This document shows positions 3,323 to 21,094 of a stretch of 64,000 nucleotides of DNA, in pieces (positions within the stretch are counted from its first letter, which is position 1; each line of letters begins with the position of its first letter). The notes under the pieces were generated by a model. That model did no database searches. It saw nothing but the letters and a program-made list of their open reading frames with translations, and had not been told where the DNA came from. The position numbers and the translations under genes were made by a program. This stretch comes from Minisyncoccota bacterium. Its GTDB lineage: Bacteria; Patescibacteriota; Patescibacteriia; Patescibacteriales; UBA12465. Where the stretch lies: the NCBI GenBank assembly GCA_021734405.1, contig JAIPJA010000001.1:1586-65585 (forward strand), written 5' to 3'.

Positions 3323-3380
3323 GATTCCTCCATTTTTTGATTAACAAATATTAACTTATTATCATAATAGCAAAAAATAA

Positions 3381-4721: not shown

Positions 4722-4755
4722 ATCGTTATCTTAATATCTTTTTACTTAAATTATT

Positions 4756-5862
4756 TTAAAGACTCTTTTTCTCTCTTTGCAAGCGTAAATAAGCTTCAAT
4801 AAATGGCTCGATTTCTCCATCTAGAACTTTATCCACTTGATCCGTACTAAAATTAGTGCGATGATCCTTTACCATTTTATAAGGTTGCATAACATACGAA
4901 CGAATTTGTTTGCCCCAAACAGCTACTTTAGCCTCTCCCTTCAATTTATTTTCTTTTTCACTTTGTTTATCTTCTTCTAGCTGATAAAGCTTGGCTTTTA
5001 AAATTTGTAAGGCAGTTTCTTTATTTTGGTGTTGTGATCTCTCTGACTGAGAAGTAGCTGACAGACCAGTAGACACATGAACAATTCTCACCGCTGAATC
5101 AGTCGTGTTAACACTTTGTCCTCCCTGACCAGAAGATCTAAAAACATCAATGCGTAAGTCCTTATCTTGCAACTCTACTTCTTTGGCCTCAGGTAAATCA
5201 GGCAAAACCTCTACCTTAGCAAAGGAAGTATGGCGCATACTCTCAGCGTCAAAAGGGGAAATTCTAACTAAGCGATGAACTCCATTTTCACTTTTTAAAT
5301 AACCATAAGAAAAAGAGCCTGAAATTTGAAAAGTCTGACTTTTAATACCAGCTTCCTGCCCAGGGCTACTATCCACTAATCTAATCTGCCAGCCTTTCTT
5401 TTCACAAAATCTCATAAGCATACGTGAAAGCATCTGAGCAAAATCTTGAGCATCAACCCCGCCTGTGCCTGCGTGTATGGACAAAATAGCATTAAAGCGA
5501 TCATATTTTTCTGAAAATAAAAGTAAAAACTCTAATTTAGAAAACTTATTCTCTAATATTTCCAGCTGAGCTTGAGCTTCCTGATACATAGAGGCGTCCC
5601 CCTCTTTTTGTCCTAAAGCTACTAATTTTTCTAATTCTAAAACTTCTTCTTCTAAATTTAACCATTTAGATATTTCTGCATCTAAATTTTCTGCTCTAGT
5701 GCTTATCTCCACAGCTTGTCTCTGATTCTGCCAAAAACCACTAGCTGTCATTTGTCTCTCCAGCTCTCTTTTTTCTGATTCTAAGCTAGCTATATCTAAA
5801 ATTTTTTTAGCAGAAATAATTTTCTCTCTAAGCTCCTCTAATTGTTTTAATAAATTTTCCAT
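4756..5862 (-). CDS. prfB: Peptide chain release factor 2 (continuous ORF, no programmed +1 frameshift)
   Basis: It has the SPF tripeptide-anticodon motif and the GGQ motif (SGQGGQSVNTTDSAVRIVH). Confidence 0.9.
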   Translation of the reverse strand: MENLLKQLEELREKIISAKKILDIASLESEKRELERQMTASGFWQNQRQAVEISTRAENLDAEISKWLNLEEEVLELEKLVALGQKEGDASMYQEAQAQLEILENKFSKLEFLLLFSEKYDRFNAILSIHAGTGGVDAQDFAQMLSRMLMRFCEKKGWQIRLVDSSPGQEAGIKSQTFQISGSFSYGYLKSENGVHRLVRISPFDAESMRHTSFAKVEVLPDLPEAKEVELQDKDLRIDVFRSSGQGGQSVNTTDSAVRIVHVSTGLSATSQSERSQHQNKETALQILKAKLYQLEEDKQSEKENKLKGEAKVAVWGKQIRSYVMQPYKMVKDHRTNFSTDQVDKVLDGEIEPFIEAYLRLQREKKSL

Positions 5863-5942
5863 AATACTCTGCTTATCACCTCTAATTATTTATTTTTAAC
5901 ATGTTTTTTTTGGGGGGGGTGATGGCATTAAAAATCCTTTAT

Positions 5943-6314
5943 CTAGGTTTCATTTATAAACTCAACTATTCTTTCTCTTTTTTCATTTGCCTGATCCGCT
6001 TTAAAATAAATTTCTAAAAATACAATCCTTTGATCACTGCCTAGATAAGCATATATAACACGAATACCGCTTTTTGCTCCACGCCCTTTTAGACTTTTAC
6101 ATTGAAATTTTTTTACTTTATAAAACTTTAAATTATCAGCATTACTCGCGCCCTCAATTTCAAAAATACTATTACTATCAACCTCCTGACAATGAAATAA
6201 CTCAATACGATATTGTTTGTTTGTTGCAAAATCATCTTTTAAAGTTGGAAATTTCTTCAAAAGCTTTTTGAAATCCCGTTTAAATTGAGCTGTTTCATCA
6301 TAATTAATTTTCAT
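5943..6314 (-). CDS. RelE/ParE-superfamily toxin (HigB/Gp49-like); the real start is probably the internal Met (MKINYDE)
   Basis: The C-terminal KSLKGRGAKSGIRVIYAYLGSDQRIVFLEIYFKADQANEKRE matches the Gp49/HigB fold pattern. Using the internal start gives an 11-nt overlap with the upstream antitoxin stop. Confidence 0.6.
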   Translation of the reverse strand: MKINYDETAQFKRDFKKLLKKFPTLKDDFATNKQYRIELFHCQEVDSNSIFEIEGASNADNLKFYKVKKFQCKSLKGRGAKSGIRVIYAYLGSDQRIVFLEIYFKADQANEKRERIVEFINET

Positions 6315-7086
6315 CGTATTTTCGAACGGAAAATTCATCGACACGAGAAAAAACCGCTTCATAATTAATAGGTTGCAAATCTTCAGTGCCGATCCATGGT
6401 ACGTCCTTATGGGAATAATCTCGCATTTTTGTTGCGTTAAAATCTTTAAATCTTTCAATTTCCCAATCAATCAGTTCTTTTTCTTGGGCAGAAAATTTCG
6501 ACAATTCAGCGGACCTCAGAGGTAAATATTTTTTTTGATCGTGCTGAAAATATTTCTTAGTTACTCTAACTAATTCTCCGTCTTGTTCCATCTGTGCAAC
6601 AATTTCCGGAAAAGCTACTGGTGTTGGTCCAAAATGATTCTTGATATACTTCGCTCCAATCAGCTGTTCTTCAAATTTTTCATAATAATCAAAGTCAATA
6701 AAGTACATAAGCTTGCACACTACGGCCTCTCCGATATTGGGGCGAGCGCCGATTCTTTCTAGAATATACAAGAGCGTTTCTTTAAATTTTTCAACTTTTT
6801 CCTGTGGCACAGAAATACGTACTTCTGGTTTTTGTGCTTTTGTTTTTTTAGCTTTTTTTAATTCAACTCTTGAAGAAGCTGGGTCTTGCCCGCTAATAAG
6901 CTCTTCAAAAGATAGTTTAAACAAATCACCAATTTTCTGAACTTCAGACAAATTAATCTCCCGCTCGCCTTTTTCTATTTGTATATAGGTCGGGCGCGAC
7001 AAACCAAGCTTACCTGCCATAAATTCCTGTGACAAACCTTTTTGTTCTCTTAGGCTTTTTATTCTTTTATATAAATTTTTAATCAT
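6304..7086 (-). CDS. Antitoxin: XRE-family HTH fused to a DUF4065/Panacea (SocA/GepA-like) domain
   Basis: The N-terminus is an HTH_XRE (LREQKGLSQEFMAGKLGLSRPTYIQIEKGEREI). The C-terminal KLMYFIDFDYYEKFEEQLIGAKYIKNHFGPTPVAFPEIV fits the DUF4065 core pattern (K-L-x-Y-F ... GP-x-P). Confidence 0.6.
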   Translation of the reverse strand: MIKNLYKRIKSLREQKGLSQEFMAGKLGLSRPTYIQIEKGEREINLSEVQKIGDLFKLSFEELISGQDPASSRVELKKAKKTKAQKPEVRISVPQEKVEKFKETLLYILERIGARPNIGEAVVCKLMYFIDFDYYEKFEEQLIGAKYIKNHFGPTPVAFPEIVAQMEQDGELVRVTKKYFQHDQKKYLPLRSAELSKFSAQEKELIDWEIERFKDFNATKMRDYSHKDVPWIGTEDLQPINYEAVFSRVDEFSVRKYDEN

Positions 7087-7152: not shown

Positions 7153-7600
7153 ATAAAATGATAATTATTATTGACATTAATATAATAGTCTAACTTCTCA
7201 AGCAAACTTTTTAAAAGCTCTTCGTCATTAACAAGCGCCAATTCTTGTGTCTTATTTTTAGTAACTCGCCATCAACAAACAGCCTTTTATCTTTTTTAAG
7301 AATGTTTATAGGATCGTTTAATAAATTTTGCCTATTATAATATACTAAAAGTAAAATAATCATATTTTTACCTTATAATAGCCATTTTTTATCAGATTTT
7401 CTTGATTTAAAATTTTATAACTCCAAAAACACCCAATTTCGGAGTTATAAAAATTCATAACTCCATTTTCTGTCGTTTTTGGACATTATGACTATATCCA
7501 ATTACATCCAAAAGTATGCCATTGTGGAGCCAGCCAATCACCACTTTTCACTTATATCACTATAAGCGATTATGTGGGATTATTAGGTAAAAACAAAAAA

Positions 7601-8287: not shown

Positions 8288-9196
8288 TTAAAACGCCATT
8301 TTTTGGCGATATACTTTCTCTAGCTCCGCATCCGCTACGCCCATATAAAACATAGTTGTGTTAAGTTTGGCGTGGCCAAGCATCTTCTGCAAATATCTTG
8401 GATGAACATCATGCTCCACTGCCCTCTTGCCAAATCCATGCCTAAATGAATGAGCTGTCACCTTTTTCTCAATCCCTGCAATTTTTCTCGCTTTCCTAAA
8501 CATTTTCTGAACTGCATCTTTGCCAATACGAGATCCAAACTTTTGATTTGATAAATTAATAAATAATGCACTACTCTTATACAATGCTTTCTTTTCTAGT
8601 TTATTTCTTACTTCGAGCCACTTTTGAAGCAACTCATTGGTTTTCTCATCCCAATATATTTCCCTTTTATGATTTGATCTTTTAAACGTTTTGCATACCG
8701 CTTTCATCTCTTCAAAGTTTAAATCAGCGTAATCTATGCTGATCATCTCACTTAACCTGACACCTGTCGCATATAAAAATGTTAATATTGTTTTATCTCT
8801 TAATTGATCGGGATAAAATTCATCAAATACATCCTGCATCCTTTTAACTTCCTCTTTTAACACAAACGGATAATGCTCTTTATCATCCTGCTTTGGCATA
8901 GGAATAACATCATCGCCAAATTCAACCAATTTCTGCCTATGTAACCACCTCCAGAATGTTCGCAAGCTACAAAAATAACTTGCCTGCGTACTCTTTTTAA
9001 CTTTCCTCATCTCTGTTAAATACAAACCGTATTCAACAAAGTCATGCTCTTTGATGTCTACAACATCCTTCTCGGTGCCATCGCACCAATCAATAAAGAT
9101 TTTAAGCCCCCAACGATAAGATTGTACGGTCTCCGGGGAGTGACCGATTGCCAGCCAATCCAAAAATTGGCCGTACAGTTGTTCATTTTGATTCAT
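8288..9196 (-). CDS. int: Phage tyrosine integrase (XerC/D family)
   Basis: The C-terminal catalytic signature is HSFRHGFGKRAVEHDVHPRYLQKMLGHAKLNTTMFY (R..H-R-H..Y). Confidence 0.85.
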   Translation of the reverse strand: MNQNEQLYGQFLDWLAIGHSPETVQSYRWGLKIFIDWCDGTEKDVVDIKEHDFVEYGLYLTEMRKVKKSTQASYFCSLRTFWRWLHRQKLVEFGDDVIPMPKQDDKEHYPFVLKEEVKRMQDVFDEFYPDQLRDKTILTFLYATGVRLSEMISIDYADLNFEEMKAVCKTFKRSNHKREIYWDEKTNELLQKWLEVRNKLEKKALYKSSALFINLSNQKFGSRIGKDAVQKMFRKARKIAGIEKKVTAHSFRHGFGKRAVEHDVHPRYLQKMLGHAKLNTTMFYMGVADAELEKVYRQKMAF

Positions 9197-9209
9197 AACA
9201 CTTTTTGGT

Positions 9210-9250
9210 CGAAAGCCCTTAATTAATGGTTAATTAATGACTTTCGTGTT
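9210..9250. promoter_or_regulatory. Near-palindromic 37-nt element upstream of int (CGAAAG-ccc-TTAATTAATG-gt-TAATTAATG-a-CTTTCG)
   Basis: The direct repeat TTAATTAATG occurs twice and is bracketed by inverted CGAAAG/CTTTCG. A further hairpin lies at 9271-9290. Confidence 0.35.
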
Positions 9251-9457
9251 AAATTAATAATAGCCCCCTACATGGATATGCACATCCATGATTGGGTTAG
9301 AAAAGGCGGATTTTTGGCCGTCTTTTCGTTTTTTAAATATATTAAAACACCCTTTATGGGGGTGTATAATAACGTCGCTTAGCCATTTAAGTCAAGTTTT
9401 GAAGATAAAATAATTATAAAGAAAATATAAAGAAAAAATAAAGTTTTTTCACCCCTC

Positions 9458-9497
9458 AAAAAGCCAAAAGGCCCTCCGAAAAGGGCCTCGTTTTTAT
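9458..9497. terminator. Bidirectional intrinsic terminator ending the XRE-ImmA-hsdRMS-cargo operon
   Basis: Hairpin GGCCCT-ccgaaa-AGGGCC has T-tracts on both strands. Confidence 0.6.
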
Positions 9498-9568
9498 ATA
9501 AATTGTAGAATATTAGCTTTTTCATATCATGATATGCGATTATACCACGATATTGCTCATCAGTCAAC

Positions 9569-10126
9569 CTATTTCTTATTAAAACTCTTAACAATACTAG
9601 GTATCAAAATTGCATTTCTTTTCCAAATATGAGTTGATGAAAATTTCTTTTCATCTAACTTTATTATATCGACAAAACCACGATCAATAATAGCATCTAA
9701 GCAACTCCCCCATTCAATAAATGTTGTTCCAAATAAACTCTTTTTATAAATACCAGCCTGCGTTAATTTTAAATTATGGATACTGACCTCTGTCCCTGAT
9801 TTGATATCATTGATAGTTTTTTGCACTAATGGAGATGTCGCTTTTGACAAAATATAATTAAAATTTTTAAATGACTCCTCACTAGTACTGCTAAAATTTA
9901 AATCAATCTTATTTTTTCTATTATCGACCAATATTATTCTATTAAAATTTCCATGAAAAGTTTTGGCTCCATAGTAACTGGCAAATTGTCGCCAAGACTT
10001 ACATTTAATACTAACAATATCTTTGAAAAATATTCTGTTGCCTTTTTTTTCAATAAAAGTATTGGAAATTTTAACTTTGTACTTTAAATAATTTACAAGC
10101 TCAATTTCCTTTACATCCTCTTGCAT
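9569..10126 (-). CDS. Hypothetical protein, last gene of the RM-associated cassette
   Basis: It is an ORF with no recognisable motif and sits 22 nt from the upstream gene. Confidence 0.45.
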   Translation of the reverse strand: MQEDVKEIELVNYLKYKVKISNTFIEKKGNRIFFKDIVSIKCKSWRQFASYYGAKTFHGNFNRIILVDNRKNKIDLNFSSTSEESFKNFNYILSKATSPLVQKTINDIKSGTEVSIHNLKLTQAGIYKKSLFGTTFIEWGSCLDAIIDRGFVDIIKLDEKKFSSTHIWKRNAILIPSIVKSFNKK

Positions 10127-10148
10127 ATTTTTTATTTTAATAATTAAT

Positions 10149-10685
10149 TTATCCTAGTCGTCCGTAAACAAATTGCTTAAGTAATTCATGTGCATCTTTG
10201 CCCTCTTGTGTTTCGTTGTACGGCTTCTCATCAGTAGACACCCAGTTATACTCATTTAAGATTTTTAATGCATTATTTATATCTTGATCACTAAACTGAC
10301 TTTTAAGATCTTCTATTCTTTCATCTTTATTCTTATCATTTTCCCGATAAACAGCTAAAAAAAGCCTTCTTGCAGATTCATCAATTTTAGAAAAAATGAT
10401 AAAAGGACTATTCTCAATTTCTTTAACCTTACCCTGAAGTTTTAAATAATTATTTTCATCTTTAAAGTCAGCGGGTCCATACAAATTATTTGATTTATTA
10501 TATAAAATGATAAAAAATCCAATTATTGTAAAAAACGGTAACACAAGAAAAGCAATATAAAAAAAATTTGACAGTTTGTCTGACTCAACAAGTTTTGCCA
10601 TAAAACCAAAACCAGTCTCTGATAACAAAAACATAAGTCCGATAATCTGTAATGGCTTATCAATTTTTAATGGGTTAATACTCAT
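10149..10685 (-). CDS. Hypothetical membrane protein (2 N-terminal TM helices plus cytoplasmic domain)
   Basis: Hydrophobic segments are IIGLMFLLSETGFGFMA and FFYIAFLVLPFFTIIGFFIILY. It lies 2 nt downstream of the preceding gene. Confidence 0.45.
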   Translation of the reverse strand: MSINPLKIDKPLQIIGLMFLLSETGFGFMAKLVESDKLSNFFYIAFLVLPFFTIIGFFIILYNKSNNLYGPADFKDENNYLKLQGKVKEIENSPFIIFSKIDESARRLFLAVYRENDKNKDERIEDLKSQFSDQDINNALKILNEYNWVSTDEKPYNETQEGKDAHELLKQFVYGRLG

Positions 10686-10687
10686 AC

Positions 10688-11596
10688 TTATATTGCATTA
10701 TATGATTGTTCAATTAAATTAAACACATAATTCAAATCACTTTCAGAAGCCAAGACTACTTCTGTAACTCCTCCTCCATAGTGACCGATTCTTGTGACAT
10801 CTCTAGCAATTTTCTTTGGATCGTCTAGTTTGTTTATTGGAACTATCAAATGAAGTTTAATTTGAGATTGTTGAAGATGTAAATACAAGAAAGCTGAACT
10901 AGTCCTATATGAAATATAGTGTTTTTTTGCTCTTTCTTCGATATTATCATTAAGAGATAAAATTTTATCTCTCAAAGAATTAAACAACTCTACAACCCCT
11001 TTATTGATGCCATTTGTATGATCTTCAACAGTATAAACCTTAACCTCCTTGCTCACTTTTTCAATTGTTTTATTTTTTGAAATCTTATTTATTGACTCGC
11101 TCCTCTCCGATGATTTTAACTGTTTGTAAAGAATTGTATCATTGTCATATTTTTCTACTTCCCATAATTCAATTGGTAGATCTTTAAAATTAATTGCATT
11201 TTGTTGATATGTAGTAAATGATTGGGAAACAAAAACAACTCTTGATTGCGACCAATCAACATCACTCTTTTTTAAATTATTTCCAGTTTTTTCATTATAC
11301 TCAAGGATAAAATCAGCCTTATTATTAAGCATCAATGACAAATAAGCAAAGCCTTGATCTACTACGCTGAAATTCTTGTCTCTTTTATACTCAATAATCA
11401 CAAAAGATTTATTTTCTTCATCAAATGCCAATGAATCTATTCTAAAATTATGTAAACTGAATTCAGTGCAAACAAAATTGAGACCAAAAATACATTCCAA
11501 ATTATCTTCAGTTAGTTTTTGCAAATCTTTTTCAAGTTTTATTGTAACTTCTTTTATTGGGTTAAGTTTCCCACTTTTGATATTAAATATTGGCAT
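10688..11596 (-). CDS. Hypothetical protein with an N-terminal PD-(D/E)xK-like (HsdR-N-like) nuclease motif
   Basis: NFRIDSLAFDEENKSFVIIEYKRDKN resembles the D...E-x-K core of restriction-endonuclease-fold / HSDR_N domains. Confidence 0.45.
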   Translation of the reverse strand: MPIFNIKSGKLNPIKEVTIKLEKDLQKLTEDNLECIFGLNFVCTEFSLHNFRIDSLAFDEENKSFVIIEYKRDKNFSVVDQGFAYLSLMLNNKADFILEYNEKTGNNLKKSDVDWSQSRVVFVSQSFTTYQQNAINFKDLPIELWEVEKYDNDTILYKQLKSSERSESINKISKNKTIEKVSKEVKVYTVEDHTNGINKGVVELFNSLRDKILSLNDNIEERAKKHYISYRTSSAFLYLHLQQSQIKLHLIVPINKLDDPKKIARDVTRIGHYGGGVTEVVLASESDLNYVFNLIEQSYNAI

Positions 11597-11891
11597 ATAA
11601 TTCCTTGATAATATCCTACAAACATTATCATTATTTTTTATTTCTTTTAAATATTTTTAAATCGCTTAAAGATACTTTCGTTGTTTTTATTTCGATTATT
11701 TCCATATTCCTCAAAATACCTACTACTCCTAGCAACCCATACACTGAACCAATAAAAATTGAAATACATATTGTTACAACTCCAAGCCAAGGAACTACAT
11801 CAAACTTATACATAAAAAAAACCCATTGCAAAAAGTGCCGGGACTATTCCAACCGCTTTCATCCATCCAATTTTTAAATACTGTGCCATAC

Positions 11892-12647
11892 TTATTGATA
11901 ATATTTTTTAACAGTTTTTACATAGCTACAATAATCACAATCATCACCTGACTCTGGAATCTTATCATTTTGCAAACATTTATGAGCCTCGACTATTTTC
12001 CCTTCAACCCAACTATCGCTTCCTTCGTATGGAATTAATGTAATATCAAATTCGAGCTTTGCATCAAATGCTTTTCTGTCTGTTTGGCCATTACAATAAA
12101 CGAAATATCCAGTATTAGAAACTTTGTAGCCATTCTTCCTGAGCAACCACTGATAAATTTCCATTTGTCTTTTATAGCCATCTTGCCAATCTTTATCAAG
12201 TGCCTCAATTTTTTCCGTCTTGCTGGTAGATTTATAATCAACTACGATATACTCCTCTTTTGAATTAATCCATAAATCATCAATCGCTCCAAACATTAAA
12301 AAATTTGTCGGTTCATGCAAGAACTGAACCCCTGTAAAGTTATGTCTCCAAACATCAAGATCTTCATGCTCAACTGGAATCGCATCAACTCCATATTTTT
12401 CTATCAAGGGGTGTTTTTCGTTCTTTAATCTTAAAATATCAAACTCTTTTTTCAATAAAGCATCAACCGCACTATTTAAAGCAAATGGAAATCCGGGCGG
12501 TCTCCCAACTCCCATTTTTCTATCCAAATAAAAACATCTTGGGCAATCAATAAAAAGCTCAAGTTTTGATCGACTTAATTTAAATGGATCCGATGATTTT
12601 GGATCGTAAAGCCCTTTTGTGCGTTGTGAATTATAGTATTGTGACAT
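11892..12647 (-). CDS. Cas4/RecB-like PD-(D/E)xK nuclease with a four-Cys cluster
   Basis: RecB-nuclease motifs are GAIDDLWI (II), IVVDYKST (III) and RQMEIYQW (QhxxY). Cys pairs CPRC at the N-terminus and CDYC at the C-terminus resemble the Cas4 Fe-S arrangement. Confidence 0.6.
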   Translation of the reverse strand: MSQYYNSQRTKGLYDPKSSDPFKLSRSKLELFIDCPRCFYLDRKMGVGRPPGFPFALNSAVDALLKKEFDILRLKNEKHPLIEKYGVDAIPVEHEDLDVWRHNFTGVQFLHEPTNFLMFGAIDDLWINSKEEYIVVDYKSTSKTEKIEALDKDWQDGYKRQMEIYQWLLRKNGYKVSNTGYFVYCNGQTDRKAFDAKLEFDITLIPYEGSDSWVEGKIVEAHKCLQNDKIPESGDDCDYCSYVKTVKKYYQ

Positions 12648-12654
12648 AGCTTAT

Positions 12655-13350
12655 TTATTCTGAAGTTGAAGTTGATATATTGTTTATTTTTTGATTATCA
12701 GGAATATCATTATTTAAATTGTTGTTTTTATTAATCAATTCTTTCATTATCTCTTGGTAAACTCCGATTGTCTCTTCTGATTTATTGTTGTTAATATTTT
12801 GAACAACATCTTCCAATATTTCTTTTCTAATTTCACTGTCCTTATTTGAAATATCATCTCTTAATTTATCTATTTCATTATTGAGAGATCCTGAAGCAAA
12901 AAAATATCCAATAATCAATGAGACTATGGTAGTTAAAATAAAAGCAAAAGAGTCAAAAATTAAATCAATTAAGTTATCTGCCCATTTTCTATTCCATCTA
13001 TTTTTAAATTCTTGCCATTTGGTTATTTTTTTAATCTTCTGTAAATCTTTTGTATCATAGCTTTCTTTTTCTTTTCCAGTTTTGTCTGTTCTATCTATCT
13101 CTTTGATTTTTTTATCACCAATAATCTCTATATCATCTATATCATCTCTTTCATCTTTCTTACTCACTGCATCTGATGTGCTCCTAATATAATTATCAGA
13201 TCGTATAAAATCAAAATATTCTTTTTTTTCATCATCGCTTTTTCCTACATGTCGATCTCTAACATCCAAAGGAGTATTTCTAATTTTTTTAATTTTTTCC
13301 TTTCTCTTTTTCTTTTTTCTTTCAAGTTTTTTTTGTCTACTGCTTATCAT
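12655..13350 (-). CDS. Hypothetical single-pass membrane protein with K/R-rich N-terminus and coiled-coil C-terminus
   Basis: The N-terminus is the charged MISSRQKKLERKKKKRKEKIKK. One TM helix is LIDLIFDSFAFILTTIVSLIIGYFF. It overlaps the upstream gene by 14 nt. Confidence 0.45.
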   Translation of the reverse strand: MISSRQKKLERKKKKRKEKIKKIRNTPLDVRDRHVGKSDDEKKEYFDFIRSDNYIRSTSDAVSKKDERDDIDDIEIIGDKKIKEIDRTDKTGKEKESYDTKDLQKIKKITKWQEFKNRWNRKWADNLIDLIFDSFAFILTTIVSLIIGYFFASGSLNNEIDKLRDDISNKDSEIRKEILEDVVQNINNNKSEETIGVYQEIMKELINKNNNLNNDIPDNQKINNISTSTSE

Positions 13351-14035
13351 ATGAGCTTAACCACTTCGAATACGTTGTCTCTAATTCTGACAATGCTTTT
13401 TTAAGTTGATCGTCTATATTAGCCTTACTTAGTTTACTTAAAGCTGGTATAAAAAACTTCTGGTAATCAAAATTAAATTCTAATTTATCAACCTCTTTGT
13501 TTTTATTTAATCCATAAATAATATTTATATAGTCTTTTACACCCTTTTTTATTAAACCTTCTGTAGTCTGCTTCTTTTGTGAAAATGACATGCTAAAATT
13601 TTGTAGATTATCTACCGTTTTATTTGTTAACAAATCAATTGTTTTTTCAGATATATCAGTATTTTCAATATCGCAATAAAAAAGAACTCCTACCCTATTG
13701 ATATTCTCTATTGAAAATAAATCAAATATAGAATAAAAATATTCAGTAACTTTTTTTGATAAAAAATTGAATTTTTCTTCAAAATTATTATCTACTTTAA
13801 TCGAAACAATAAAATCATCAGAAGTTATCTTTAAATTCTCACCATTATTGTTGTATAGGGTTTTTTCTTTTGAGGAGGTCTCTGTTATTTTTGGAAAGAA
13901 TTTATTGTCAAATGGTGAATTTGGATCGTTTAATATATTATCAATAATCTCACCAGACATGTCTGGGATTCTAAAAGATCTTGAAAATCTAATTCCAAGC
14001 GTTATACCAACTATACTTTTTTTAATTTCTTGCAT
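13337..14035 (-). CDS. Hypothetical protein immediately downstream of hsdS
   Basis: It is an ORF with no recognised motif, 21 nt from the hsdS stop. Confidence 0.45.
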   Translation of the reverse strand: MQEIKKSIVGITLGIRFSRSFRIPDMSGEIIDNILNDPNSPFDNKFFPKITETSSKEKTLYNNNGENLKITSDDFIVSIKVDNNFEEKFNFLSKKVTEYFYSIFDLFSIENINRVGVLFYCDIENTDISEKTIDLLTNKTVDNLQNFSMSFSQKKQTTEGLIKKGVKDYINIIYGLNKNKEVDKLEFNFDYQKFFIPALSKLSKANIDDQLKKALSELETTYSKWLSSYDKQ

Positions 14036-14056
14036 ATTTTTAAAATTATTTAATTT

Positions 14057-15358
14057 TTAGCTAACAGTTATTTGTCCATTCATAAGCATCGGCAAAAGCC
14101 AGTCGCGCAAAGAAGATAATCTTTGATTTTCCTCCAAATTTTTCTGTTTCTTCTCTTCTATTTTTTCCATAAATTCGAAAAAAACATCTAATATTTGATT
14201 ATCAGGAACTACAATATAATTTTTATCTACAAAATTATCAAATAAAAAGTTTTTTATTCCTGAAGTTTTACCTTCGTAGCCAAAAAAAACTTTGCCATCA
14301 TACATCCTGTTCCAAAAATAATAAAAACTATAAATTAACTTACTATTTTTAAGTGTTATTGCTTTACAAAAATTTGAACAAATTAATGGTTTTGAGAATC
14401 TGCCCATTTTCGAATTTGAGATATAAGCAATACGCCCTGTAGATTGAGTTGGACTCCCACCAGATATTTCAATAATCAAATCATAAGGATTTAATATTTT
14501 ATGCGAATTTTTTTCAAGTATAAATCGCCTAGGAGGGTCGCATTGTTCTTTACCATTCAAGCCATTTATATCTGTTCCACGGATGCAAAATACATCTTGA
14601 GTATAATTTCCGGTCTTTTGATCTTTCCCCCAATCACCACTCTTGTCAGCCGATATTAAATCTTTAACCTTCTCAACACTCCATCCTTTGGGAACTTCGG
14701 CAACAAGCTTATTATTCCTATACATTTTACCTCCACTACTTTTATACGGCTTTCCTTGCTTGTTAGGAAACTCGAATTGCACAAACCAGTATTCATAAAA
14801 TGTTTTTGCTATACTATCTAACTTGTCATTTATTTCGTTATTAAGTTTAATTTTGGAATCAATAAACGATAAAATTTCAGCAATTTTTTTTTGATCTTCC
14901 GCTCTTTCAGGCACTTCAAATTTTAAATTACCAATATCTTCTGGCTTAATCGACGGATAAGAAGATGTAGCGTTCATGCCTAGATTATGGAGATATTCAG
15001 TAATTTGCTTTTGTGTTAAAAGGTAATAAATAAATTTGGGATCGATATTTTCATCTACTATATCTATAGTCGTAAATCCAGTTGATACAATTAAATTTTC
15101 ATCTGGATTTTCTAAGTAACCATAATGTTCTTGATTTGGTCTAACTGTCGAATAGATGATTGAGTTATTTTTAACTCGCCTCTTTGCTCTACTAGGTATT
15201 TTATCTTCCTTTGTATCAAGTATTTTCAAATTAACAATACTATTCTTTGTAATATTTCCAGTATCTAGATATTTAATAACATTAAAATTATCATCCTTCC
15301 CTAATGATTTTAAATTAAGATTTGATATTTTACTGATTTGTATAATTCTTCTATTCAT
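14057..15358 (-). CDS. hsdS: Type I restriction-modification specificity subunit
   Basis: It has two target-recognition halves with conserved spacer/C-terminal HsdS blocks (FEVPERAEDQKKIAEIL, RDWLLPMLMNGQITV). It overlaps hsdM by 8 nt. Confidence 0.8.
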   Translation of the reverse strand: MNRRIIQISKISNLNLKSLGKDDNFNVIKYLDTGNITKNSIVNLKILDTKEDKIPSRAKRRVKNNSIIYSTVRPNQEHYGYLENPDENLIVSTGFTTIDIVDENIDPKFIYYLLTQKQITEYLHNLGMNATSSYPSIKPEDIGNLKFEVPERAEDQKKIAEILSFIDSKIKLNNEINDKLDSIAKTFYEYWFVQFEFPNKQGKPYKSSGGKMYRNNKLVAEVPKGWSVEKVKDLISADKSGDWGKDQKTGNYTQDVFCIRGTDINGLNGKEQCDPPRRFILEKNSHKILNPYDLIIEISGGSPTQSTGRIAYISNSKMGRFSKPLICSNFCKAITLKNSKLIYSFYYFWNRMYDGKVFFGYEGKTSGIKNFLFDNFVDKNYIVVPDNQILDVFFEFMEKIEEKKQKNLEENQRLSSLRDWLLPMLMNGQITVS

Positions 15359-16985
15359 ACTTCAAATTATTCAATTTATGCTCAATTTGATCTTCCAATT
15401 GTTTAGATTTATGAAAACATTCTGATAATTCTTTTTTAAAATTATTAATTTTTTCTTCAAATTCTTTTATCGAAATATCAATATGCTCAATATTTATATT
15501 GAAATATTGACCAGTGCTAAAACTATAATTTTTCTCTTTCACCTCATCGAAGCCAACTACGACTGAAAAATTATCGACTTTTTCCTTATTAGTAAAGACT
15601 CTTACAATCTCTTGCTCTTCCTCTAAACTTAATACGGTTTTTTCATTTTTTCCATCAACTTTAATTTTTTCTCCCATTTTAGAAGCATCCATGAATACAA
15701 CTTTTTCATCTATATTTTCCTTATCAATAAATATTACTGAAACATTTGTTCCAGTGGTGGCAAAAATATTACTGGGCATGCTTATCACACCTTTTAGCAT
15801 TTTTCGATCAATTAATTCTTCCCTGATTTTCTTTTCAATTCCGTTTTGTGCTGTTATAAATCCCGTTGGAACAACAACAGCTGATTTACCTTTCTGTGAT
15901 AACGAATAAATAATATGTTGAAGAAATAAAAGATATATTGCCATTGATTGTTTTTTCTTTTTAGGTACAGTTGGTATACCAGCAAAAAACCTCTCACCAT
16001 TCTCCTTGGTATCAATATCCTCTCTCCAATTACTAAAATCCAACTTGAAAGGAGGATTTGAAACAATATAATCAAATTTCATCAATTCCTTTCCTTGCCT
16101 ATGGTAGGGATCTTTTATTGTATTACCTTGGATAATGTTATGAATTGAATGAACTAAATTATTTAAAATAAGATTTAATCGCAAAAGATGTGATGATTTA
16201 TCTGACAAATCCTGCGAATAAATAGTACATTTATCTTCACCAATCGCATGAGCGACGTTCATTAATAAGGTTCCCGAACCTGCTGATGGATCGTATACCG
16301 TAACATTACTCACTGGCTTATCAACCAAAATAGATGCCATAATTTTAGCTATGGCATGGGGTGTGTAATATTCAGCATAAACACCTCCCCCATCTTTATT
16401 ATAATCTTTAATCAAATACTCAAATATCGTTGAAAAGAAATCAAACTTTTGTTCAAAAATATCTTCAAAGTTAACATCAACTAGCTGATTAATTATAGCT
16501 TTTGAAAAATTATCTTTTTGTTTTTCAGAAAAGTTTTTTAAATATTCATCGACGCCATAAAACAACTGAATTTTATTCCCCTCTTCAGTTTTAACCGAAA
16601 ACACGTCATTATTGATTTTTGAAATATCTCTCAATGTATCACTGAAAAGCTTAGCAAACTGTTCACTGTTTTGCTGATTCCATAATGTCGAAATAAAATG
16701 ATCAGGATATAATCTCGCACTATCAGGACTCATTTTTTTAAGCAAAAACTCATAATCACTCTTAGAGTATTTTTTTATTACTTCTTCCCAGTTATCCGCT
16801 TTTTTAAGTTTTGAATCAAGCTCTTTTACTTCATATCCAAATTTGTCATTCATGAACTTATACAAAAAAACTTGGGTGATAATTTTAAATTCATCCCCAC
16901 TATTACCTAATCCATAATCACTACAAATTCCTTTCAGATTATCGATTAACTGTTTAGTTTTTTGAGTAAAATTTTGCTCTACCAT
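15351..16985 (-). CDS. hsdM: Type I RM N6-adenine DNA methyltransferase subunit
   Basis: Motif I is DPSAGSGTLLMN and motif IV is NPPF (YIVSNPPFKLDF). Confidence 0.9.
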   Translation of the reverse strand: MVEQNFTQKTKQLIDNLKGICSDYGLGNSGDEFKIITQVFLYKFMNDKFGYEVKELDSKLKKADNWEEVIKKYSKSDYEFLLKKMSPDSARLYPDHFISTLWNQQNSEQFAKLFSDTLRDISKINNDVFSVKTEEGNKIQLFYGVDEYLKNFSEKQKDNFSKAIINQLVDVNFEDIFEQKFDFFSTIFEYLIKDYNKDGGGVYAEYYTPHAIAKIMASILVDKPVSNVTVYDPSAGSGTLLMNVAHAIGEDKCTIYSQDLSDKSSHLLRLNLILNNLVHSIHNIIQGNTIKDPYHRQGKELMKFDYIVSNPPFKLDFSNWREDIDTKENGERFFAGIPTVPKKKKQSMAIYLLFLQHIIYSLSQKGKSAVVVPTGFITAQNGIEKKIREELIDRKMLKGVISMPSNIFATTGTNVSVIFIDKENIDEKVVFMDASKMGEKIKVDGKNEKTVLSLEEEQEIVRVFTNKEKVDNFSVVVGFDEVKEKNYSFSTGQYFNINIEHIDISIKEFEEKINNFKKELSECFHKSKQLEDQIEHKLNNLKYE

Positions 16986-19978
16986 ACTTTTGTGTTATTA
17001 AAATCGTAAAGATATTCTTGAGTTGCACAATTATTAATTAAATCCGCTGACTTGTTGTCCAATTTAATGCCGTGATTTTCAAAGCTTCCAATCACAATAG
17101 GACTCATGAATTTTATAAAATAATCTTCATTTTGAATCATTCTTGCATTATCTAGGACTTTTTGATCAGCTTGTTTTTTGATATCTGTTAAAGTTTCAAA
17201 AATAGTTATTTCTCTAGCATCAACATTCCTCTCTTCTAAAATTCTTTTATGAATTCTTGCGTATTTTTCATCATTCTCATATTTCGCCTTTAGCTGATTA
17301 TTTCTTCTATTTAGATCCGTAATCGCCTCATATATTTTCTCAAGCTCTTTGATATTAGCACTCATTTCTTCTTGGGTAATTTCATCAAGATTTTTCTTAT
17401 CAAATAATCTTCTCAACTCTTCATATAAAGCCACGAATTCTTTGTCATTTTTATCAAAATTTTTACCCATTTCCTCTCTTGTCTTTTTGAGCGTATTCTT
17501 TAGTTTATCAGCTATAACCATTTCTTCCTCTGATACCTTACGGAAAGTAAATATAACGTCTTCTAACGCAACATTCAAGAGGTTGGTTGTTTCTGAATTA
17601 TTCTCCAAAGAATCCTTTAAATTCACCAAGTTTAAATGATTTTCTGCCTCATTATAAAGCATAGCAAGTTTTTTGAAATCTATTTTATCCAAAAGTTCAT
17701 AATGCCCCATCAAACGAATGATATTATAAAGATTTTTTGCACTCATTAAAGCTTTTTTAATCTCTAAAATTTCTTGCTTATCTTGAATGGCAGATATTTG
17801 TTTAGAAAAATTCTCGGCGTTGACTAAATCAAATCTAAAAAGCCTGTCTTTAATAATTTCAATTTCCGATTCTATTTCTTCTTTAGATAAGAAAATATTT
17901 GAATAAGTCTCCATCTCATCACCAAGTTCGTCTTGCAACTCATCAAAATATGCTTTATTTGTGGCATCAAATTCTTTTCGAATATCGGCAAAATCCACTA
18001 CATATCCAAAATGAAAATCTTTATAAGGTCGGTTTACACGAGTTAATGTTTGTAATAAGTTATGTTTTTTTATAACTCTGCCTAGATATAACTTCTTTAA
18101 CCGCTTAGCATCAAAACCTGTTAAAAGCATATTGTACACAAATAGAAAATCAATCTTACCTTCTTTGAATTGGTCAATTTCATCTTTTCTTTCATCTTTT
18201 GTGCCGATATCATGTAAAATCAAACTCGCTGTTAAATTCTCGCTGTGTTTCTTATTAAATACTTCAAACATTTTTTTTGCCTGATCTGAACTATCACAGA
18301 CCACCAACGCACCAATACTATCATCACCGTACATAATTCTACTTTTATCAAAATCTGCAACAATATAGTCTAACATCGGTTCAACAAATTTTGGATGAGA
18401 ATAAACTTTCCTTTTATCAGCATCACCTTTCAATATTTTTATATCTTTTAATGCTTCTTGTAATTTAATCTTGTAACTAGTTTCAATATCCTCTCTTATT
18501 AATTTTAGAGTATATCCATCAGCTATCGATGAATTATAATAATATTTGTGAATATAGTCACCAAAAATAGCTTTTGAGCTTTTATCTTTACCGATGAGCG
18601 GAGTTCCTGTTAGTCCGATAATTATCGCTTCTCTGTCTGAAGTCATTAAATTAGCAAGAAAGCTTCCTTTTGGATCATAACTTCGGTGTACTTCATCTAG
18701 GAAATAAATTCTTTGAATGTTTGTACTATAAAGTCCGCAGTTTAAAACAGCGGTATCTTCTTTGAATTTTTGGATGTTAACTACAGTAATCTCAAGTTGC
18801 CCCTTTAAATTATGTATATTTTTATTACTCTGAAAATCCTTTAATAACTCATCTTTTGAATTTACAGTATGTACTACCAATCCTCGACTTGAAAATTCTT
18901 TTTTAGCTTGAATCAAAAGATCCAAACGATCAACTATAAAATAAAACTTAGGTATGATTTGTTTTTTCTGAAAATAATCAGTTAAATACTTAACATTATA
19001 ATAAGATAATGCAGTTTTTCCGCTTCCTTGGGTATGCCAAATAATCCCCTTTTTAATACCTTTATCAATTGACTGCTCGATTGCTTTGGTAGCAAAAAAT
19101 TGAGGGTATCTCATTACATGCTTTTGAAGTCCATCATGCTCTTTTACGTATGCGATTGCATATCTCAATAACATTGATAATCTATCTCTGCTAAATAATG
19201 AACTTAAGATTCTGTTAGTTGGTGAATCTATATCCTTGTTAGTTATAAACTCTGGGCTATGTTTTATAACATTTAAATTATTATCTTTTAAAACATAATT
19301 CTCTACTTCTTCGTCTTCTGGTTTTATGATCGAATTAACATCGAGCTTCTCCACTGCCACATCCTCTTTAAAAGCGTTAAATATTGCTCTATTATGTGAA
19401 GTGCTTGAATAATAAGCACCCTCAACCTGACCAATTGATTCCGAATCATACTCCATGTTATTTGAGAAAACAAGGAGTTGAGTAATATTAATAAATTTTC
19501 TAAATTTTTTATTTTGAAAACGAGTATTTATTCTATTCCTTTCAGCGATTATCCCCTCTCTATTGTTTGGCTTTTTTACTTCTATAAATGCCAAAGGCAT
19601 ACCGTTTATTAAAAGCGTGATATCTGGTCGAAATTCCTCATCTCCGTTTTTACAAGTAAGTTCTGTAACGACATGGAGTGAATTGTTATCAAAATTATCA
19701 AAATCTATTAATTTTATTTCATTTGATAGCAACATCTCATAAAACTCCTTTCCTAAGTCCTCATTATCCAAAACCAAAGATATCTTTTCGTATAATTTTT
19801 TTATCTCATCATCTTCAACATCTTTATTTATTGCCTTGATGCTATCAAAAAAAATATCTGTAAAAATATTTGTTTCAACATCCCATTTAGATGTTTTTAG
19901 TGATAAGTATTTATACCCCAATCTACAAAGATGTAATATTGCTGGTATTTTTACCCTTGTATCTTCATTGTAAGCCAT
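16979..19978 (-). CDS. hsdR: Type I restriction enzyme R subunit (endonuclease/helicase)
   Basis: The N-terminal nuclease motif is FRPDITLLINGMPLAFIEVKKPN. The helicase Walker A is HTQGSGKTALS and the DEAH-like box is FLDEVHRS. Size is 999 aa. Confidence 0.9.
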   Translation of the reverse strand: MAYNEDTRVKIPAILHLCRLGYKYLSLKTSKWDVETNIFTDIFFDSIKAINKDVEDDEIKKLYEKISLVLDNEDLGKEFYEMLLSNEIKLIDFDNFDNNSLHVVTELTCKNGDEEFRPDITLLINGMPLAFIEVKKPNNREGIIAERNRINTRFQNKKFRKFINITQLLVFSNNMEYDSESIGQVEGAYYSSTSHNRAIFNAFKEDVAVEKLDVNSIIKPEDEEVENYVLKDNNLNVIKHSPEFITNKDIDSPTNRILSSLFSRDRLSMLLRYAIAYVKEHDGLQKHVMRYPQFFATKAIEQSIDKGIKKGIIWHTQGSGKTALSYYNVKYLTDYFQKKQIIPKFYFIVDRLDLLIQAKKEFSSRGLVVHTVNSKDELLKDFQSNKNIHNLKGQLEITVVNIQKFKEDTAVLNCGLYSTNIQRIYFLDEVHRSYDPKGSFLANLMTSDREAIIIGLTGTPLIGKDKSSKAIFGDYIHKYYYNSSIADGYTLKLIREDIETSYKIKLQEALKDIKILKGDADKRKVYSHPKFVEPMLDYIVADFDKSRIMYGDDSIGALVVCDSSDQAKKMFEVFNKKHSENLTASLILHDIGTKDERKDEIDQFKEGKIDFLFVYNMLLTGFDAKRLKKLYLGRVIKKHNLLQTLTRVNRPYKDFHFGYVVDFADIRKEFDATNKAYFDELQDELGDEMETYSNIFLSKEEIESEIEIIKDRLFRFDLVNAENFSKQISAIQDKQEILEIKKALMSAKNLYNIIRLMGHYELLDKIDFKKLAMLYNEAENHLNLVNLKDSLENNSETTNLLNVALEDVIFTFRKVSEEEMVIADKLKNTLKKTREEMGKNFDKNDKEFVALYEELRRLFDKKNLDEITQEEMSANIKELEKIYEAITDLNRRNNQLKAKYENDEKYARIHKRILEERNVDAREITIFETLTDIKKQADQKVLDNARMIQNEDYFIKFMSPIVIGSFENHGIKLDNKSADLINNCATQEYLYDFNNTKVW

Positions 19979-20033
19979 ATTTATTATTTCTGTTTATTTG
20001 AATTATTTTATTCTTTTCAAATAAAATTGTTAA

Positions 20034-20579
20034 TTATATAACTAAGCTTCCGATTCTAATCATCATTGCTTGTTGACTAACATTATATTTTTTAGCCAAT
20101 TCAGCTATTGTTTTTAAATCATCATCATTATTCTTTATCTTATATTTACCTGATAAATCATTAATCATTTCATTTCTTGGCATCAATAATTCAGCTGCAA
20201 ATTGATTTGCCTGAATTTCTTTTATATTATTTGTATTTGATGTTGCGTTTGCATCTCTAAAATAAACATCAGATGAATCTACATGCATACTGCTGATGTT
20301 GTGCAACATAAAATGCCCAATTTCATGGGCGATTGTAAACCTTTGCCTATGTTCACAATGATCTTCATTTACAACAATAACAGGTTGGCCATCTTTACCT
20401 TTCATCTTTATAGCACCAGAAATTTCATCTTTTGAGAACTTCATCTTAGCTACTTTTATTCCAAGTGATTTTGCCACATCTTCAATTTTTACCGGGTAAC
20501 TATCAATCTCAAGCTTATTCGATATTTTTTCAGCTTCCTTGACGGCTAATTTAATTTTTTGATTAATAAAATTAGACAT
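20034..20579 (-). CDS. ImmA/IrrE-family metallopeptidase (anti-repressor protease)
   Basis: The HEXXH motif is TIAHEIGHFMLH. It pairs with the upstream XRE gene. Confidence 0.8.
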   Translation of the reverse strand: MSNFINQKIKLAVKEAEKISNKLEIDSYPVKIEDVAKSLGIKVAKMKFSKDEISGAIKMKGKDGQPVIVVNEDHCEHRQRFTIAHEIGHFMLHNISSMHVDSSDVYFRDANATSNTNNIKEIQANQFAAELLMPRNEMINDLSGKYKIKNNDDDLKTIAELAKKYNVSQQAMMIRIGSLVI

Positions 20580-20583
20580 ATGT

Positions 20584-20871
20584 TTATATATTATCTAAAT
20601 TCTTAGTATCATCTTTATTTAATAATTTAACATTATTACTAGTATCAATTCCTTTCATTACTTCTGTAATTTTCAAATCTAAAGCCTCTGCAACCAAATA
20701 AAGCTGAAAAGCTGAGATTTGTTGTTTTCCATTTTCTATTGCAGACAATGTGCTTTTATTAATATTTAAACCAGATTCTTTGCTAAATTCATCCAAAGAA
20801 TACCCCTTTTTGGTTCTTTCATCTTTGATTTTTTTCCCTAAATTTAAATAAAAACTTGCTTTATCAAGCAT
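20584..20871 (-). CDS. XRE-family HTH transcriptional repressor (phage cI/ImmR-like)
   Basis: The HTH is KGYSLDEFSKESGLNINKSTLSAIENGKQ. It sits directly upstream of ImmA. Confidence 0.8.
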   Translation of the reverse strand: MLDKASFYLNLGKKIKDERTKKGYSLDEFSKESGLNINKSTLSAIENGKQQISAFQLYLVAEALDLKITEVMKGIDTSNNVKLLNKDDTKNLDNI

Positions 20872-20903
20872 ATATTTTTTTTATCGTAATAATATCTATT
20901 ATT

Positions 20904-20974
20904 AGTATAGTTCAATCAAATATGTTTGTCAATAACAAACAGTGTTGACCTACACAAAACTCTTATGGTAAAAT
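20904..20974. promoter_or_regulatory. Back-to-back divergent sigma70-like promoters (phage genetic switch)
   Basis: On the minus strand, TTGACA (20927-20932) -N17- TATACT (20904-20909) drives the XRE operon. On the plus strand, TTGACC (20945-20950) -N17/18- TAAAAT (20969-20974) drives the small rightward ORF. Confidence 0.5.
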
Positions 20975-20977
20975 AGA

Positions 20978-20997
20978 ATGTGAGCGGTAACTCACAT
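20978..20997. promoter_or_regulatory. Operator-like perfect palindrome ATGTGAG-cggtaa-CTCACAT at the predicted +1 of the rightward promoter
   Basis: The arms are perfect 7-bp inverted repeats. The left arm TGTGAGCGG matches the first 9 nt of lacO1. A related inverted repeat (CCTCACAT-taa-TGTGAGG) recurs at 21254-21271. Confidence 0.45.
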
Positions 20998-21094
20998 CTA
21001 TTTACAGACACGACTTTGACAAGTCAAAGGTCGAGTGCCTTATCAACATATCTAGATTATACCGCTTTTTAAGAAAAATAACAATCGGAAGATT

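Follow-up and report, generated by a model that had tools for sequence, protein, structure and literature searches.

Genes behind a type I restriction-modification system in a Candidatus Pacebacteria prophage probably form a mosaic defence island

Background

Do the six uncharacterised genes that follow a type I restriction-modification (RM) system in a prophage of a candidate phyla radiation (CPR) bacterium make up one new defence system, or are they separately acquired genes that share an insertion site? The question is raised by a stretch of 64,000 nucleotides (nt) of contig JAIPJA010000001.1, here called the window, from a metagenome-assembled genome (MAG) of Candidatus Pacebacteria. The genes, named X1 to X6, lie at 9569-14035, and their setting is a prophage of about 43 kb. 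Several proteins encoded in the interval are 100% identical to Candidatus Pacebacteria bacterium MAG entries (locus tags K9M44_00060 to 00090). An earlier reading of this DNA, referred to below as the original prediction, had taken the six genes for a single defence or exclusion module.

Defence hotspots in prophages and their satellites, such as the P2/P4 hotspots of E. coli, are well known, as are defence islands in general, which Makarova reportedly treated in 2011. The CPR bacteria (Patescibacteria) and their phage defence systems are almost unexplored experimentally. We find that the string of genes is best read as a mosaic prophage defence island of independently acquired units, a reading to which we give a probability of about 0.75, and not as one six-gene machine.

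The six genes do not recur as a set

The gene order is HTH (helix-turn-helix), M78, hsdRMS, X1, X2, X3, Xs, X4, X5, X6 and a terminator (Table 1). The six open reading frames (ORFs) of the original prediction are all present, on the minus strand and co-directional with hsdR, hsdM and hsdS, and the five junctions that it listed (21, -14, 7, 2 and 22 nt) are correct; it left out the sixth, of 295 nt between X3 and X4, which holds a seventh gene, Xs. A strong intrinsic terminator is found at 9489-9468, inside the segment (9458-9497) where it had placed the end of the string, and the prophage context that it assumed is borne out by portal, large terminase (TerL), tape-measure and tail genes at 23-40 kb between host genes.

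The co-directional genes, the short or overlapping junctions and the one strong terminator all speak for a single system, in which X1-X6, alone or together with hsdRMS, would act as a new multi-component defence or abortive-infection system, and so does the combination of two nucleases with membrane proteins. The distribution of the homologues speaks against it, because the set never recurs and X1-X2, X3 and X4 each have many homologues without the others. No homologue of X3-X6 lies near X1 in the eight other contexts of that gene, and none of the other five genes was found near X3 in 83 loci. Near X4, X1, X2, X5 and X6 are missing from all 39 genome loci, and X3 lies within 10 kb in 2 of the 39 only. 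Apart from the source contig, there is no locus with more than four of the genes. The original prediction had treated X1-X6 as one system and had counted a lack of co-occurrence in other genomes as refuting it; the set does not co-occur elsewhere, and only sub-blocks of it recur. What stands of the proposed defence module is a prophage region behind an intact type I RM system with the make-up of a defence island, and what falls is the single six-gene module.

The sub-blocks differ from one relative to the next (loci used for comparison carry the prefix L, and percentages are identities). The run X4 (84%)-X5 (49%)-X6 (59%) is found in L053, and X3 (92%)-Xs-X4-X5 (87%) in L142, where Xs is intact and X4 is without residues 132-192; both runs count in favour of a single system. 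Against it, X4 is thus internally deleted in L142, while in L143 X3 (87%) is followed directly by a frameshifted X5, with Xs and X4 absent, and Xs is frameshifted in the window itself. In L051/L052 the order is AAA_21-RloB-Xs-X5-M23-like...AbiJ/Abi_C, and X4 is absent. A Falkowbacteria MAG (L016; JAZDLN010000039.1, 1260-15212) contains the three small genes found at 21296-21961 of the window, at 58-70% identity, and this homologous hotspot carries different genes: a type III RM system, ABC-3C (SMEK_N/CTD12, DUF2326), an intact Xs, an Mrr-like nuclease, X4 (79%) and an M23-like gene. The integrase-side flank of the island was not found in relatives, of which few exist.

The gene-by-gene loss and decay in relatives, together with the Xs frameshift, argue against mutual dependence of the genes as far as their sequences can tell, and the patterns of distribution point to a hotspot with shuffling cargo and not to an obligate multi-gene system.

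The Falkowbacteria locus also encodes a protein of 1168 amino acids (aa) without a domain, and its M23-like gene also follows X5 in L051/L052.

Table 1. Coordinates in the window of the genes and signals of the string and of the adjoining integrase
Feature	Position	Strand	Basis or remark
Tyrosine integrase of the prophage	8288..9196	-	Phage_integrase 1.3e-33
Intrinsic terminator ending the string	9468..9489	-	9-bp stem, 5 GC pairs, T-run; hairpin on plus strand too
X6, near-orphan, 185 aa, last gene before terminator	9569..10126	-	one homologue, 59% identical (L053)
X5, small membrane protein, 178 aa, rare family	10149..10685	-	transmembrane helix 43-61; 4 homologues
X4, PD-(D/E)xK nuclease + DUF5655, = PADLOC PDC-S18	10688..11596	-	PDC-S18 3e-121
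Xs, 85-aa two-helix membrane protein, frameshifted	11631..11889	-	T8 run about 11811-11818
X3, solo Cas4-like PD-(D/E)xK nuclease	11892..12647	-	PDDEXK_1 8.4e-14; conserved cysteines
X2, single-pass membrane protein	12655..13350	-	transmembrane helix residues 130-148; overlaps X1 by 14 nt
X1, soluble alpha/beta protein, unnamed family	13337..14035	-	first of conserved X1-X2 pair
hsdS, type I specificity subunit	14057..15358	-	PADLOC Specificity_I 4.1e-70
hsdM, type I methyltransferase	15351..16985	-	PADLOC MTase_I 9.1e-253, full length
hsdR, type I restriction subunit	16979..19978	-	PADLOC REase_I 1.7e-40; Pfam HSDR_N, ResIII, T1R_D3-like
M78 (ImmA/IrrE-type) metallopeptidase	20034..20579	-	Pfam Peptidase_M78 3.2e-23; 55 nt upstream of hsdR
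XRE-type HTH protein, 95 aa, first in co-directional string	20584..20871	-	HTH by sequence reading; 4 nt upstream of M78
Promoter-like site, TTGACA-17-TATACT, upstream of HTH gene	20904..20932	-	11/12 match to sigma-70-like consensus; CPR promoters uncharacterised

X1 and X2 form a conserved, RM-linked pair

For the single genes, the original prediction had called X3 a Cas4/RecB-type nuclease, had seen a PD-(D/E)xK block at the N-terminus of X4, had taken X2 and X5 for membrane proteins and had found no recognisable domain in X1 and X6. Our searches agree: X3 matches PDDEXK_1, and its CPRC...CDYC cluster and catalytic motifs are conserved; the X4 block reads D54...E69-x-K71 in at least 95% of 34 homologues; X2 has one transmembrane helix and X5 one strong and possibly a second; and X1 and X6 match nothing in Pfam, NCBIfam, PHROG or PADLOC. 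The further statement that none of the genes belongs to a named defence family has to be given up for X4, which is PDC-S18 of PADLOC; X3 falls in the solo Cas4-like group (PMC5704561). X1, X2, X5, X6 and Xs have no significant match in Pfam, NCBIfam or PADLOC, and a PADLOC search with the relatives of these five genes also gave no match.

X1 has 18 close homologues, and a profile search extends its family to 466 representative clusters, all of them single-domain proteins of about 230 aa without a name or a Pfam domain. Neither Pfam on 49 diverse members nor the names given in the source databases provided an annotation for the family, and no relative of X1 was found in IMG/VR with the single protein or with the profile. 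X2 consists of a basic N-terminus, a GKxxxEKxxYxxF motif, a polar linker, one transmembrane helix and a C-terminal coiled coil.

We read the surroundings of X1 at loci L001-L011, L137-L140 and L144-L146, which represent eight contexts besides the window. In all eight, including that of a member with 31% identity, the X1 homologue is followed by an overlapping partner with the architecture of X2; the overlap is about -8 to -23 nt, compared with -14 nt in the window, and the partners of the closer X1 members also have the GKxxxEKxxYxxF motif. X1-X2 is thus a conserved, translationally coupled pair, as toxin-antitoxin and abortive-infection modules are. RM or methyltransferase genes adjoin the pair in 5 of the 9 contexts (window included): a type I system in the window, type III systems in L004 and L011, methyltransferases in L007, and a HinfI-type system in L144, where a HinfI restriction endonuclease-Dam-N6_N4 methyltransferase set lies 8 nt upstream of the pair. 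The pair lies directly 3' of the RM operon in the window, L007 and L144, and in L004 it lies downstream of the type III system with one small gene (DUF1508) in between. The other 4 contexts are without RM genes, and those of L009/L010 and L137 have no defence neighbour.

L137-L140 (7483-8733) represent a chromosomal context (DprA, ribosomal proteins S9/L13, TopA), in which genes for DUF6978 and DUF1828/DUF1829 come after a distant X1-X2 pair; L139 is a variant with other genes further downstream, including an HNH_3 protein. This region may be another small variable island.

The predicted fold of X1 (pLDDT 86, pTM 0.85) is a large antiparallel sheet backed by helices. A Foldseek search of the model against the PDB gave no match, and the search of BFVD gave one unnamed match with a TM-score of about 0.5; with the first search empty and the sole match in the second unnamed, we do not claim a kinase-like function. 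Residues G14, G116, D190, Q192 and P197 are invariant across the 49 diverse members, and R114, D32 and N171 are nearly so, a pattern that would fit an enzyme or a ligand-binding site. By the positive-inside rule, the basic residues ahead of the transmembrane helix of X2 would place its N-terminus inside and its coiled coil outside the cell. X1 could be a cytoplasmic sensor or enzyme, with X2 as its effector or exclusion protein in the membrane. As a conserved RM-proximal cassette that is absent from PADLOC, the X1-X2 pair appears to be new.

X3 is a near-invariant nuclease gene among variable neighbours

In 70 distinct sequences, the nuclease motifs of X3 (D123/D124, D137-x-K139 and Q161..Y165) show a conservation of 98% or more, and 110 of its 251 positions reach at least 98% identity in the same set. 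It has six conserved cysteines (C35, C38, C185, C224, C237 and C240), enough in number for the four Fe-S ligands of Cas4. The usual cysteine pattern of Cas4 and AddB is 1+3; the spacing in X3, CxxC...C...C...CxxC, is unlike it, and X3 also scores under the Cas4 family cut-offs (33.5 against 65 bits for TIGR00372, 15.1 against 22.7 for PF01930). The window holds no CRISPR-like array, and no cas genes were recognised among the neighbours of X3 in the window or among the Pfam-named representatives of its neighbour clusters, so X3 is at most a solo or Cas4-like protein. The Cas4 family has four conserved cysteines that bind an Fe-S cluster, and solo-Cas4 and Cas4-like proteins of pfam12705 are common in CPR genomes, where they adjoin RM genes and have been proposed to take part in defence pathways that are uncharacterised (Hudaiberdiev et al. 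2017, PMC5704561). X3 resembles these proteins in its PD-(D/E)xK core, in its conserved cysteines, in its location away from CRISPR-cas, in its CPR host and in its position next to RM genes.

Relatives of X3 with 73-79% identity occur on at least 409 metagenome contigs and on three IMG/VR contigs, and none was found in 50,697 GenBank phage genomes. The neighbours on both sides are co-directional with X3 (the upstream one in 72 of 74 loci), at 2-15 nt from the upstream gene and -10 to +8 nt from the downstream one, and in the 74 loci they fall into 41 upstream and 50 downstream distinct clusters. In 38 of 60 distinct loci the genes upstream on the same strand include an RM-type cluster, which the remaining 22 lack. 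The upstream genes include type III Mod/Res, type I, Eco57I/TaqI_C-type and SNF2+PLD genes, defence-type reverse transcriptases (DRT) and SMC/AAA genes, with further matches to GajB, AriA and MADS models; downstream there are matches to TIR, trypsin-like, GajA, AbiE, SspH and PDC-S13/S04.

Across 63 non-redundant loci (L054-L136) no conserved DNA was found beyond the coding sequence of X3. Because the upstream stop codon is usually 2-10 nt from the X3 start, the breakpoints of exchange would lie at the borders of the gene. This picture of a near-invariant gene, set with gene-border precision within variable defence strings, appears to be new in quantitative form; the conservation of X3 amid neighbours that vary on both sides is documented here and not in PMC5704561. 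In their flanks the 63 loci have in common only an A-rich run, about 7 nt long, ahead of the start codon.

X4 is a catalogued candidate that usually stands alone

X4 matches PDC-S18 (PDLC04945) from end to end, with residues 1-299 on positions 1-301 of the 302 in the profile, and its C-terminal half matches DUF5655 (2.4e-12). Among GTDB species genomes its homologues were found at 39 loci, which span CPR, archaea, Proteobacteria and Bacteroidota; 46 plasmid records also have them, annotated only as 'DUF5655 domain-containing protein'. X4 usually stands alone, and as type I genes lie within 10 kb in only 6 of the 39 genome loci, we rejected type I RM as an obligate partner. On Acinetobacter and Cupriavidus plasmids a homologue has hsdS on one side and hsdR on the other; on those of Staphylococcus one directly follows a type I operon, on those of Rhizobium one is divergent from such an operon, and in Streptomyces none is next to one.

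The DUF5655 half (residues about 136-300) also forms the C-terminal part of proteins annotated as DUF262 or DUF262+DUF1524 (plasmid matches H27-H32), which are type IV restriction enzymes of the GmrSD kind. Fusion to such enzymes hints that DUF5655 is a module for the recognition of DNA or of its modification. X4 would be a stand-alone, RM-linked DNA endonuclease in which DUF5655 may read DNA or its modification. The fusions with DUF262 or DUF262+DUF1524 were seen in cyanobacteria, Arthrobacter, Deinococcus and Ruegeria.

Xs, X5 and X6 are small and sparsely distributed

The seventh gene, Xs, is broken in the window. Its first 27 codons begin 2 nt past the stop of X3 and end at a stop codon, and the remainder continues in another frame (ORF 11631-11831) after a +1 frameshift in a T8 run. 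When one T is deleted from the run, the reading frame becomes collinear with the intact homologues of L016 (70%), L051 (58%) and L142 (94%). A second assembly (L141, with SRR12088350 as its sequencing run), 100% identical over 12.3 kb, also has the T8 run; this rules out an artefact of the assembler and leaves an error at the level of the reads, since L141 probably derives from the same ones. Xs could be a pseudogene in the window, the T8 run could be prone to slippage, or the frameshift could come from a homopolymer error in the reads.

X5 matches an unannotated phage family, phrog_26238, at 6e-6. The homologue of X6 sits downstream of X4-X5 in L053. A single-sequence AF2 model of X6 reached a pLDDT of 36 and was unusable, and a possible assignment of X6 to PDC-S02 (E 0.0046) was rejected because the L053 homologue does not have that match. 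Xs, X5 and X6 may be individually dispensable add-ons.

The type I RM system and signals for transcription

HsdR, HsdM and HsdS are encoded by three adjacent, overlapping genes and make up a complete type I RM system according to PADLOC, with which Pfam on an independent gene call concurs. The promoter-like site before the HTH gene, read from 20932 to 20904, is the best match of its kind and a possible start for the whole string. The terminator at its other end (fold -23.2 kcal/mol, z -2.5) is the sole strong one on the minus strand after hsdR; four weak terminator-like hairpins (16357, 15755, 12508 and 11853) lie within minus-strand coding sequence and are probably chance matches. Co-transcription of the string in the lysogen, from the lysogeny promoter that the original prediction assumed, is plausible as judged from the gene spacing and these signals.

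A second promoter-like site, close to the consensus (TTGACT-17-TATAAT, with an extended -10), lies at 9567-9539 on the minus strand, directly after the stop of X6 and about 50 nt upstream of the terminator hairpin. It would give a transcript of about 70-80 nt, which may be a small RNA or a product of chance and has no Rfam match. Scanned against Rfam, the region at 7-21.5 kb yielded nothing beyond sub-threshold chance matches, near 21.24-21.33 kb.

The prophage and the position of the island

The host genes at 12-7086 encode a histidine kinase, ComEC, a release factor and an HTH-Panacea protein; host genes resume from about 50.9 kb, where they include a Mur ligase and FtsW. Between them lie lysis genes at about 22 kb, tail and tape-measure genes at 23-29 kb, a portal gene at 34.6-36.7 kb, TerL at 38.3-39.7 kb and, at 40016-41263 on the minus strand, a phage ParB-like domain fused to a DNA methyltransferase (phrog_498, 1.4e-128). 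From the positions of these phage genes, the string from HTH and M78 through hsdRMS to X6 takes up the accessory region that is bounded by the lysis genes and the integrase. The island measures about 11.4 kb (about 9.5-20.9 kb), with 9569-14035 as its distal part, and is outside the phage modules for replication and morphogenesis.

A search for repeats at the cassette boundaries, integron-like or other, found none across 7-21.5 kb, and the whole island (9200-21000) had zero megablast matches among GenBank phages. The 64-kb window holds no tRNA gene, and no clear pair of attachment (att) sites was found beyond a single direct repeat. This repeat, TTTTTAAAAGCTCTTC, is exact over 16 nt, lies at 7208-7223 and 50707-50722 on either side of the phage genes, and has a chance expectation of about 0.02 between the two boundary regions by our own rough estimate. 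It is a candidate att core, with which the prophage would span about 43.5 kb.

Further features were seen inside the prophage and just beyond its ends. The ParB-methyltransferase shares its element with the type I RM system and is a typical methylase for self-protection or against restriction. Among the host genes just past the right end there is a fragment of a second tyrosine recombinase (about 52040-52683, plus strand), which keeps the C-terminal catalytic region (HSLRHSFATHLL...LLGH) without a proper N-terminus; the neighbouring ORF at 50936-51961 is MurB-like by eye. Just outside the integrase end, at 6304-7086 on the minus strand, lies a gene for a protein of antitoxin type with HTH_3 and SocA/Panacea domains (Pfam 3e-14 and 1e-16).

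Alternative explanations

As a mosaic prophage defence island, the string would consist of the HTH-M78 genes with the type I RM system, the X1-X2 pair, X3, Xs, X4, X5 and X6 as separate units that are probably co-transcribed. The RM system would cut unmodified incoming DNA, and the island would be a layered set whose units, autonomous or coupled loosely, are expressed by the prophage. It is from the observed gene content, families, linkage and decay that we infer all of the biochemical and defence functions proposed here.

Several points weigh against the mosaic reading. Co-occurrence was sampled unevenly: X5 has 4 homologues and X6 has 1, most of the metagenome contigs are short, and the X3 loci were collected by exact 8-mer patterns, so that they stand for close relatives only. 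The tight junctions could reflect functional coupling, as may the sub-blocks X4-X5-X6 and X3-Xs-X4-X5. For X1-X2, X5, X6 and Xs, a role in defence is inferred through guilt by association, and for X4 it leans on PDC-S18, an unvalidated candidate for which we found no functional literature, DUF5655 being mentioned only in a genome report. Finally, co-transcription is suggested by gene spacing and a single strong terminator, and the promoter consensus may not fit CPR promoters.

The alternative that survives best is that the adjacent restriction systems use X3, and possibly also X1-X2 and X4, as accessory factors that are not autonomous, in an arrangement of RM plus downstream helper; they might degrade restriction fragments or serve as back-up effectors when RM is inhibited, as PrrC does with EcoprrI. 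We treat this alternative, with either mode of action, as possible but doubtful. It would account for the 38 of 60 distinct X3 loci that have same-strand RM-type genes at 2-15 nt upstream, for the place of X1-X2 directly 3' of RM genes in the window, L007 and L144 and one gene away in L004, and for the X4 homologues between hsdS and hsdR on Acinetobacter and Cupriavidus plasmids; a precedent is ACE1, a member of the Cas4 family that is a proven accessory of prokaryotic Argonaute (pAgo) (PMC12094033). However, X3 has upstream partners of many kinds that are unrelated to one another (types I, III and IIG, reverse transcriptases, AAA), and 22 of the 60 loci have no RM cluster; type I genes accompany X4 within 10 kb at no more than 6 of 39 genome loci; X1-X2 is without RM genes in 4 of 9 contexts; and adjacency is to be expected within defence islands even without functional coupling.

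Within the mosaic reading, analogy with Cas4, AddB and ACE1 suggests that X3 probably processes or degrades DNA ends (PMC5704561; PMC12094033). It would act on the ends of DNA broken by whichever restriction or defence system lies upstream. That it sits directly behind many different DNA-targeting systems suggests a role as their helper, an idea that we put forward tentatively. More speculative still is the joint proposal that X1-X2 is an undescribed two-gene back-up coupled to RM while X3 is a universal end-processing helper in CPR. According to this proposal, X1-X2 may be placed preferentially 3' of RM systems of types I, II and III and act by abortive infection or by exclusion of injection, and X3 could replace the degradation of broken foreign DNA by RecBCD/AddAB-type enzymes, which small genomes may lack.

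It is improbable that these are ordinary accessory or housekeeping genes of the phage with no part in defence, whereby X3 would serve recombination or repair as an exonuclease, X2, Xs and X5 would have to do with lysis or be membrane morons without an effect on other phages, and X1-X2 would be a toxin-antitoxin or addiction pair that keeps the element stable. The small membrane proteins of prophages are indeed classic morons of varied function, X3 matches PHROGs of phage exonucleases (phrog_31195 at 8.5e-17, phrog_69 and others), X5 also has a PHROG match, the conservation of X3 is above that of typical fast-evolving defence genes and suits DNA metabolism, and some X1-X2 contexts (L009/L010, L137) have no defence neighbour. 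The relatives of X3, however, are absent from the GenBank phage genomes searched, and they lie amid RM, reverse transcriptase, Gabija, TIR and Abi genes and not amid recombinases or replication genes. X4 is a PADLOC candidate derived from defence islands and occurs inside type I RM operons on plasmids, X1-X2 is beside RM or methyltransferase genes in more than half of its contexts (5 of 9), and the island itself is separate from the replication and morphogenesis modules.

A single multi-component system, with or without hsdRMS, is very improbable in the face of the distribution and decay set out above.

Comparison with known systems

Prophage defence islands, X4 as a catalogued candidate and solo Cas4-like genes beside RM genes in CPR (the last since 2017) are already known. 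The mosaic island of the window shares with hotspots of the P2/P4 type a fixed accessory site in a temperate phage, which in this case has the lysis genes on one side and the integrase on the other, as well as a cargo of RM and defence-type genes that varies among related elements (the window compared with L016, L142 and L143). It differs from them in its CPR host, in the presence of X1-X2, Xs, X5 and X6, which belong to no catalogued system, and in that no flanking recombination sites were found for it. As a hotspot it is thinly documented, because only one related element shares the upstream flank.

X4 is like the rest of the PDC-S18/DUF5655 family, an end-to-end match and a single gene that moves alone, and nothing sets it apart, although here 2.5 kb separate it from the type I RM system, inside which its homologues on the Acinetobacter and Cupriavidus plasmids lie. 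PrrC, an anticodon nuclease, is a back-up effector embedded in the EcoprrI type I operon. The X4 homologues between hsdS and hsdR on these plasmids occupy the position of PrrC; unlike PrrC, X4 is of the PD-(D/E)xK DNA-nuclease type and is no anticodon nuclease with an ABC ATPase domain, and most of its homologues are away from type I RM.

In the pAgo-ACE1 system (APACE1), a small nuclease of the Cas4 family lies beside an unrelated DNA-targeting effector and boosts it (PMC12094033). This is a working precedent for the proposed helper role of X3; the X3 locus, in contrast, has no Argonaute, and the partners of X3 vary between loci.

Conclusions

A CPR prophage carries what we read as a layered island composed of a type I RM system, PDC-S18, a solo Cas4-like nuclease and several unnamed families. 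The value of the analysis lies in a ranking of candidates, with the X1-X2 pair first (conserved, RM-linked and absent from PADLOC), then X3, and then X4 or X4-X5-X6; a construct of all six genes is not the unit to test. If X3 is a general helper nuclease, this would explain the over-representation of solo Cas4-like proteins in bacteria and archaea whose genomes are small, a question left open in PMC5704561.

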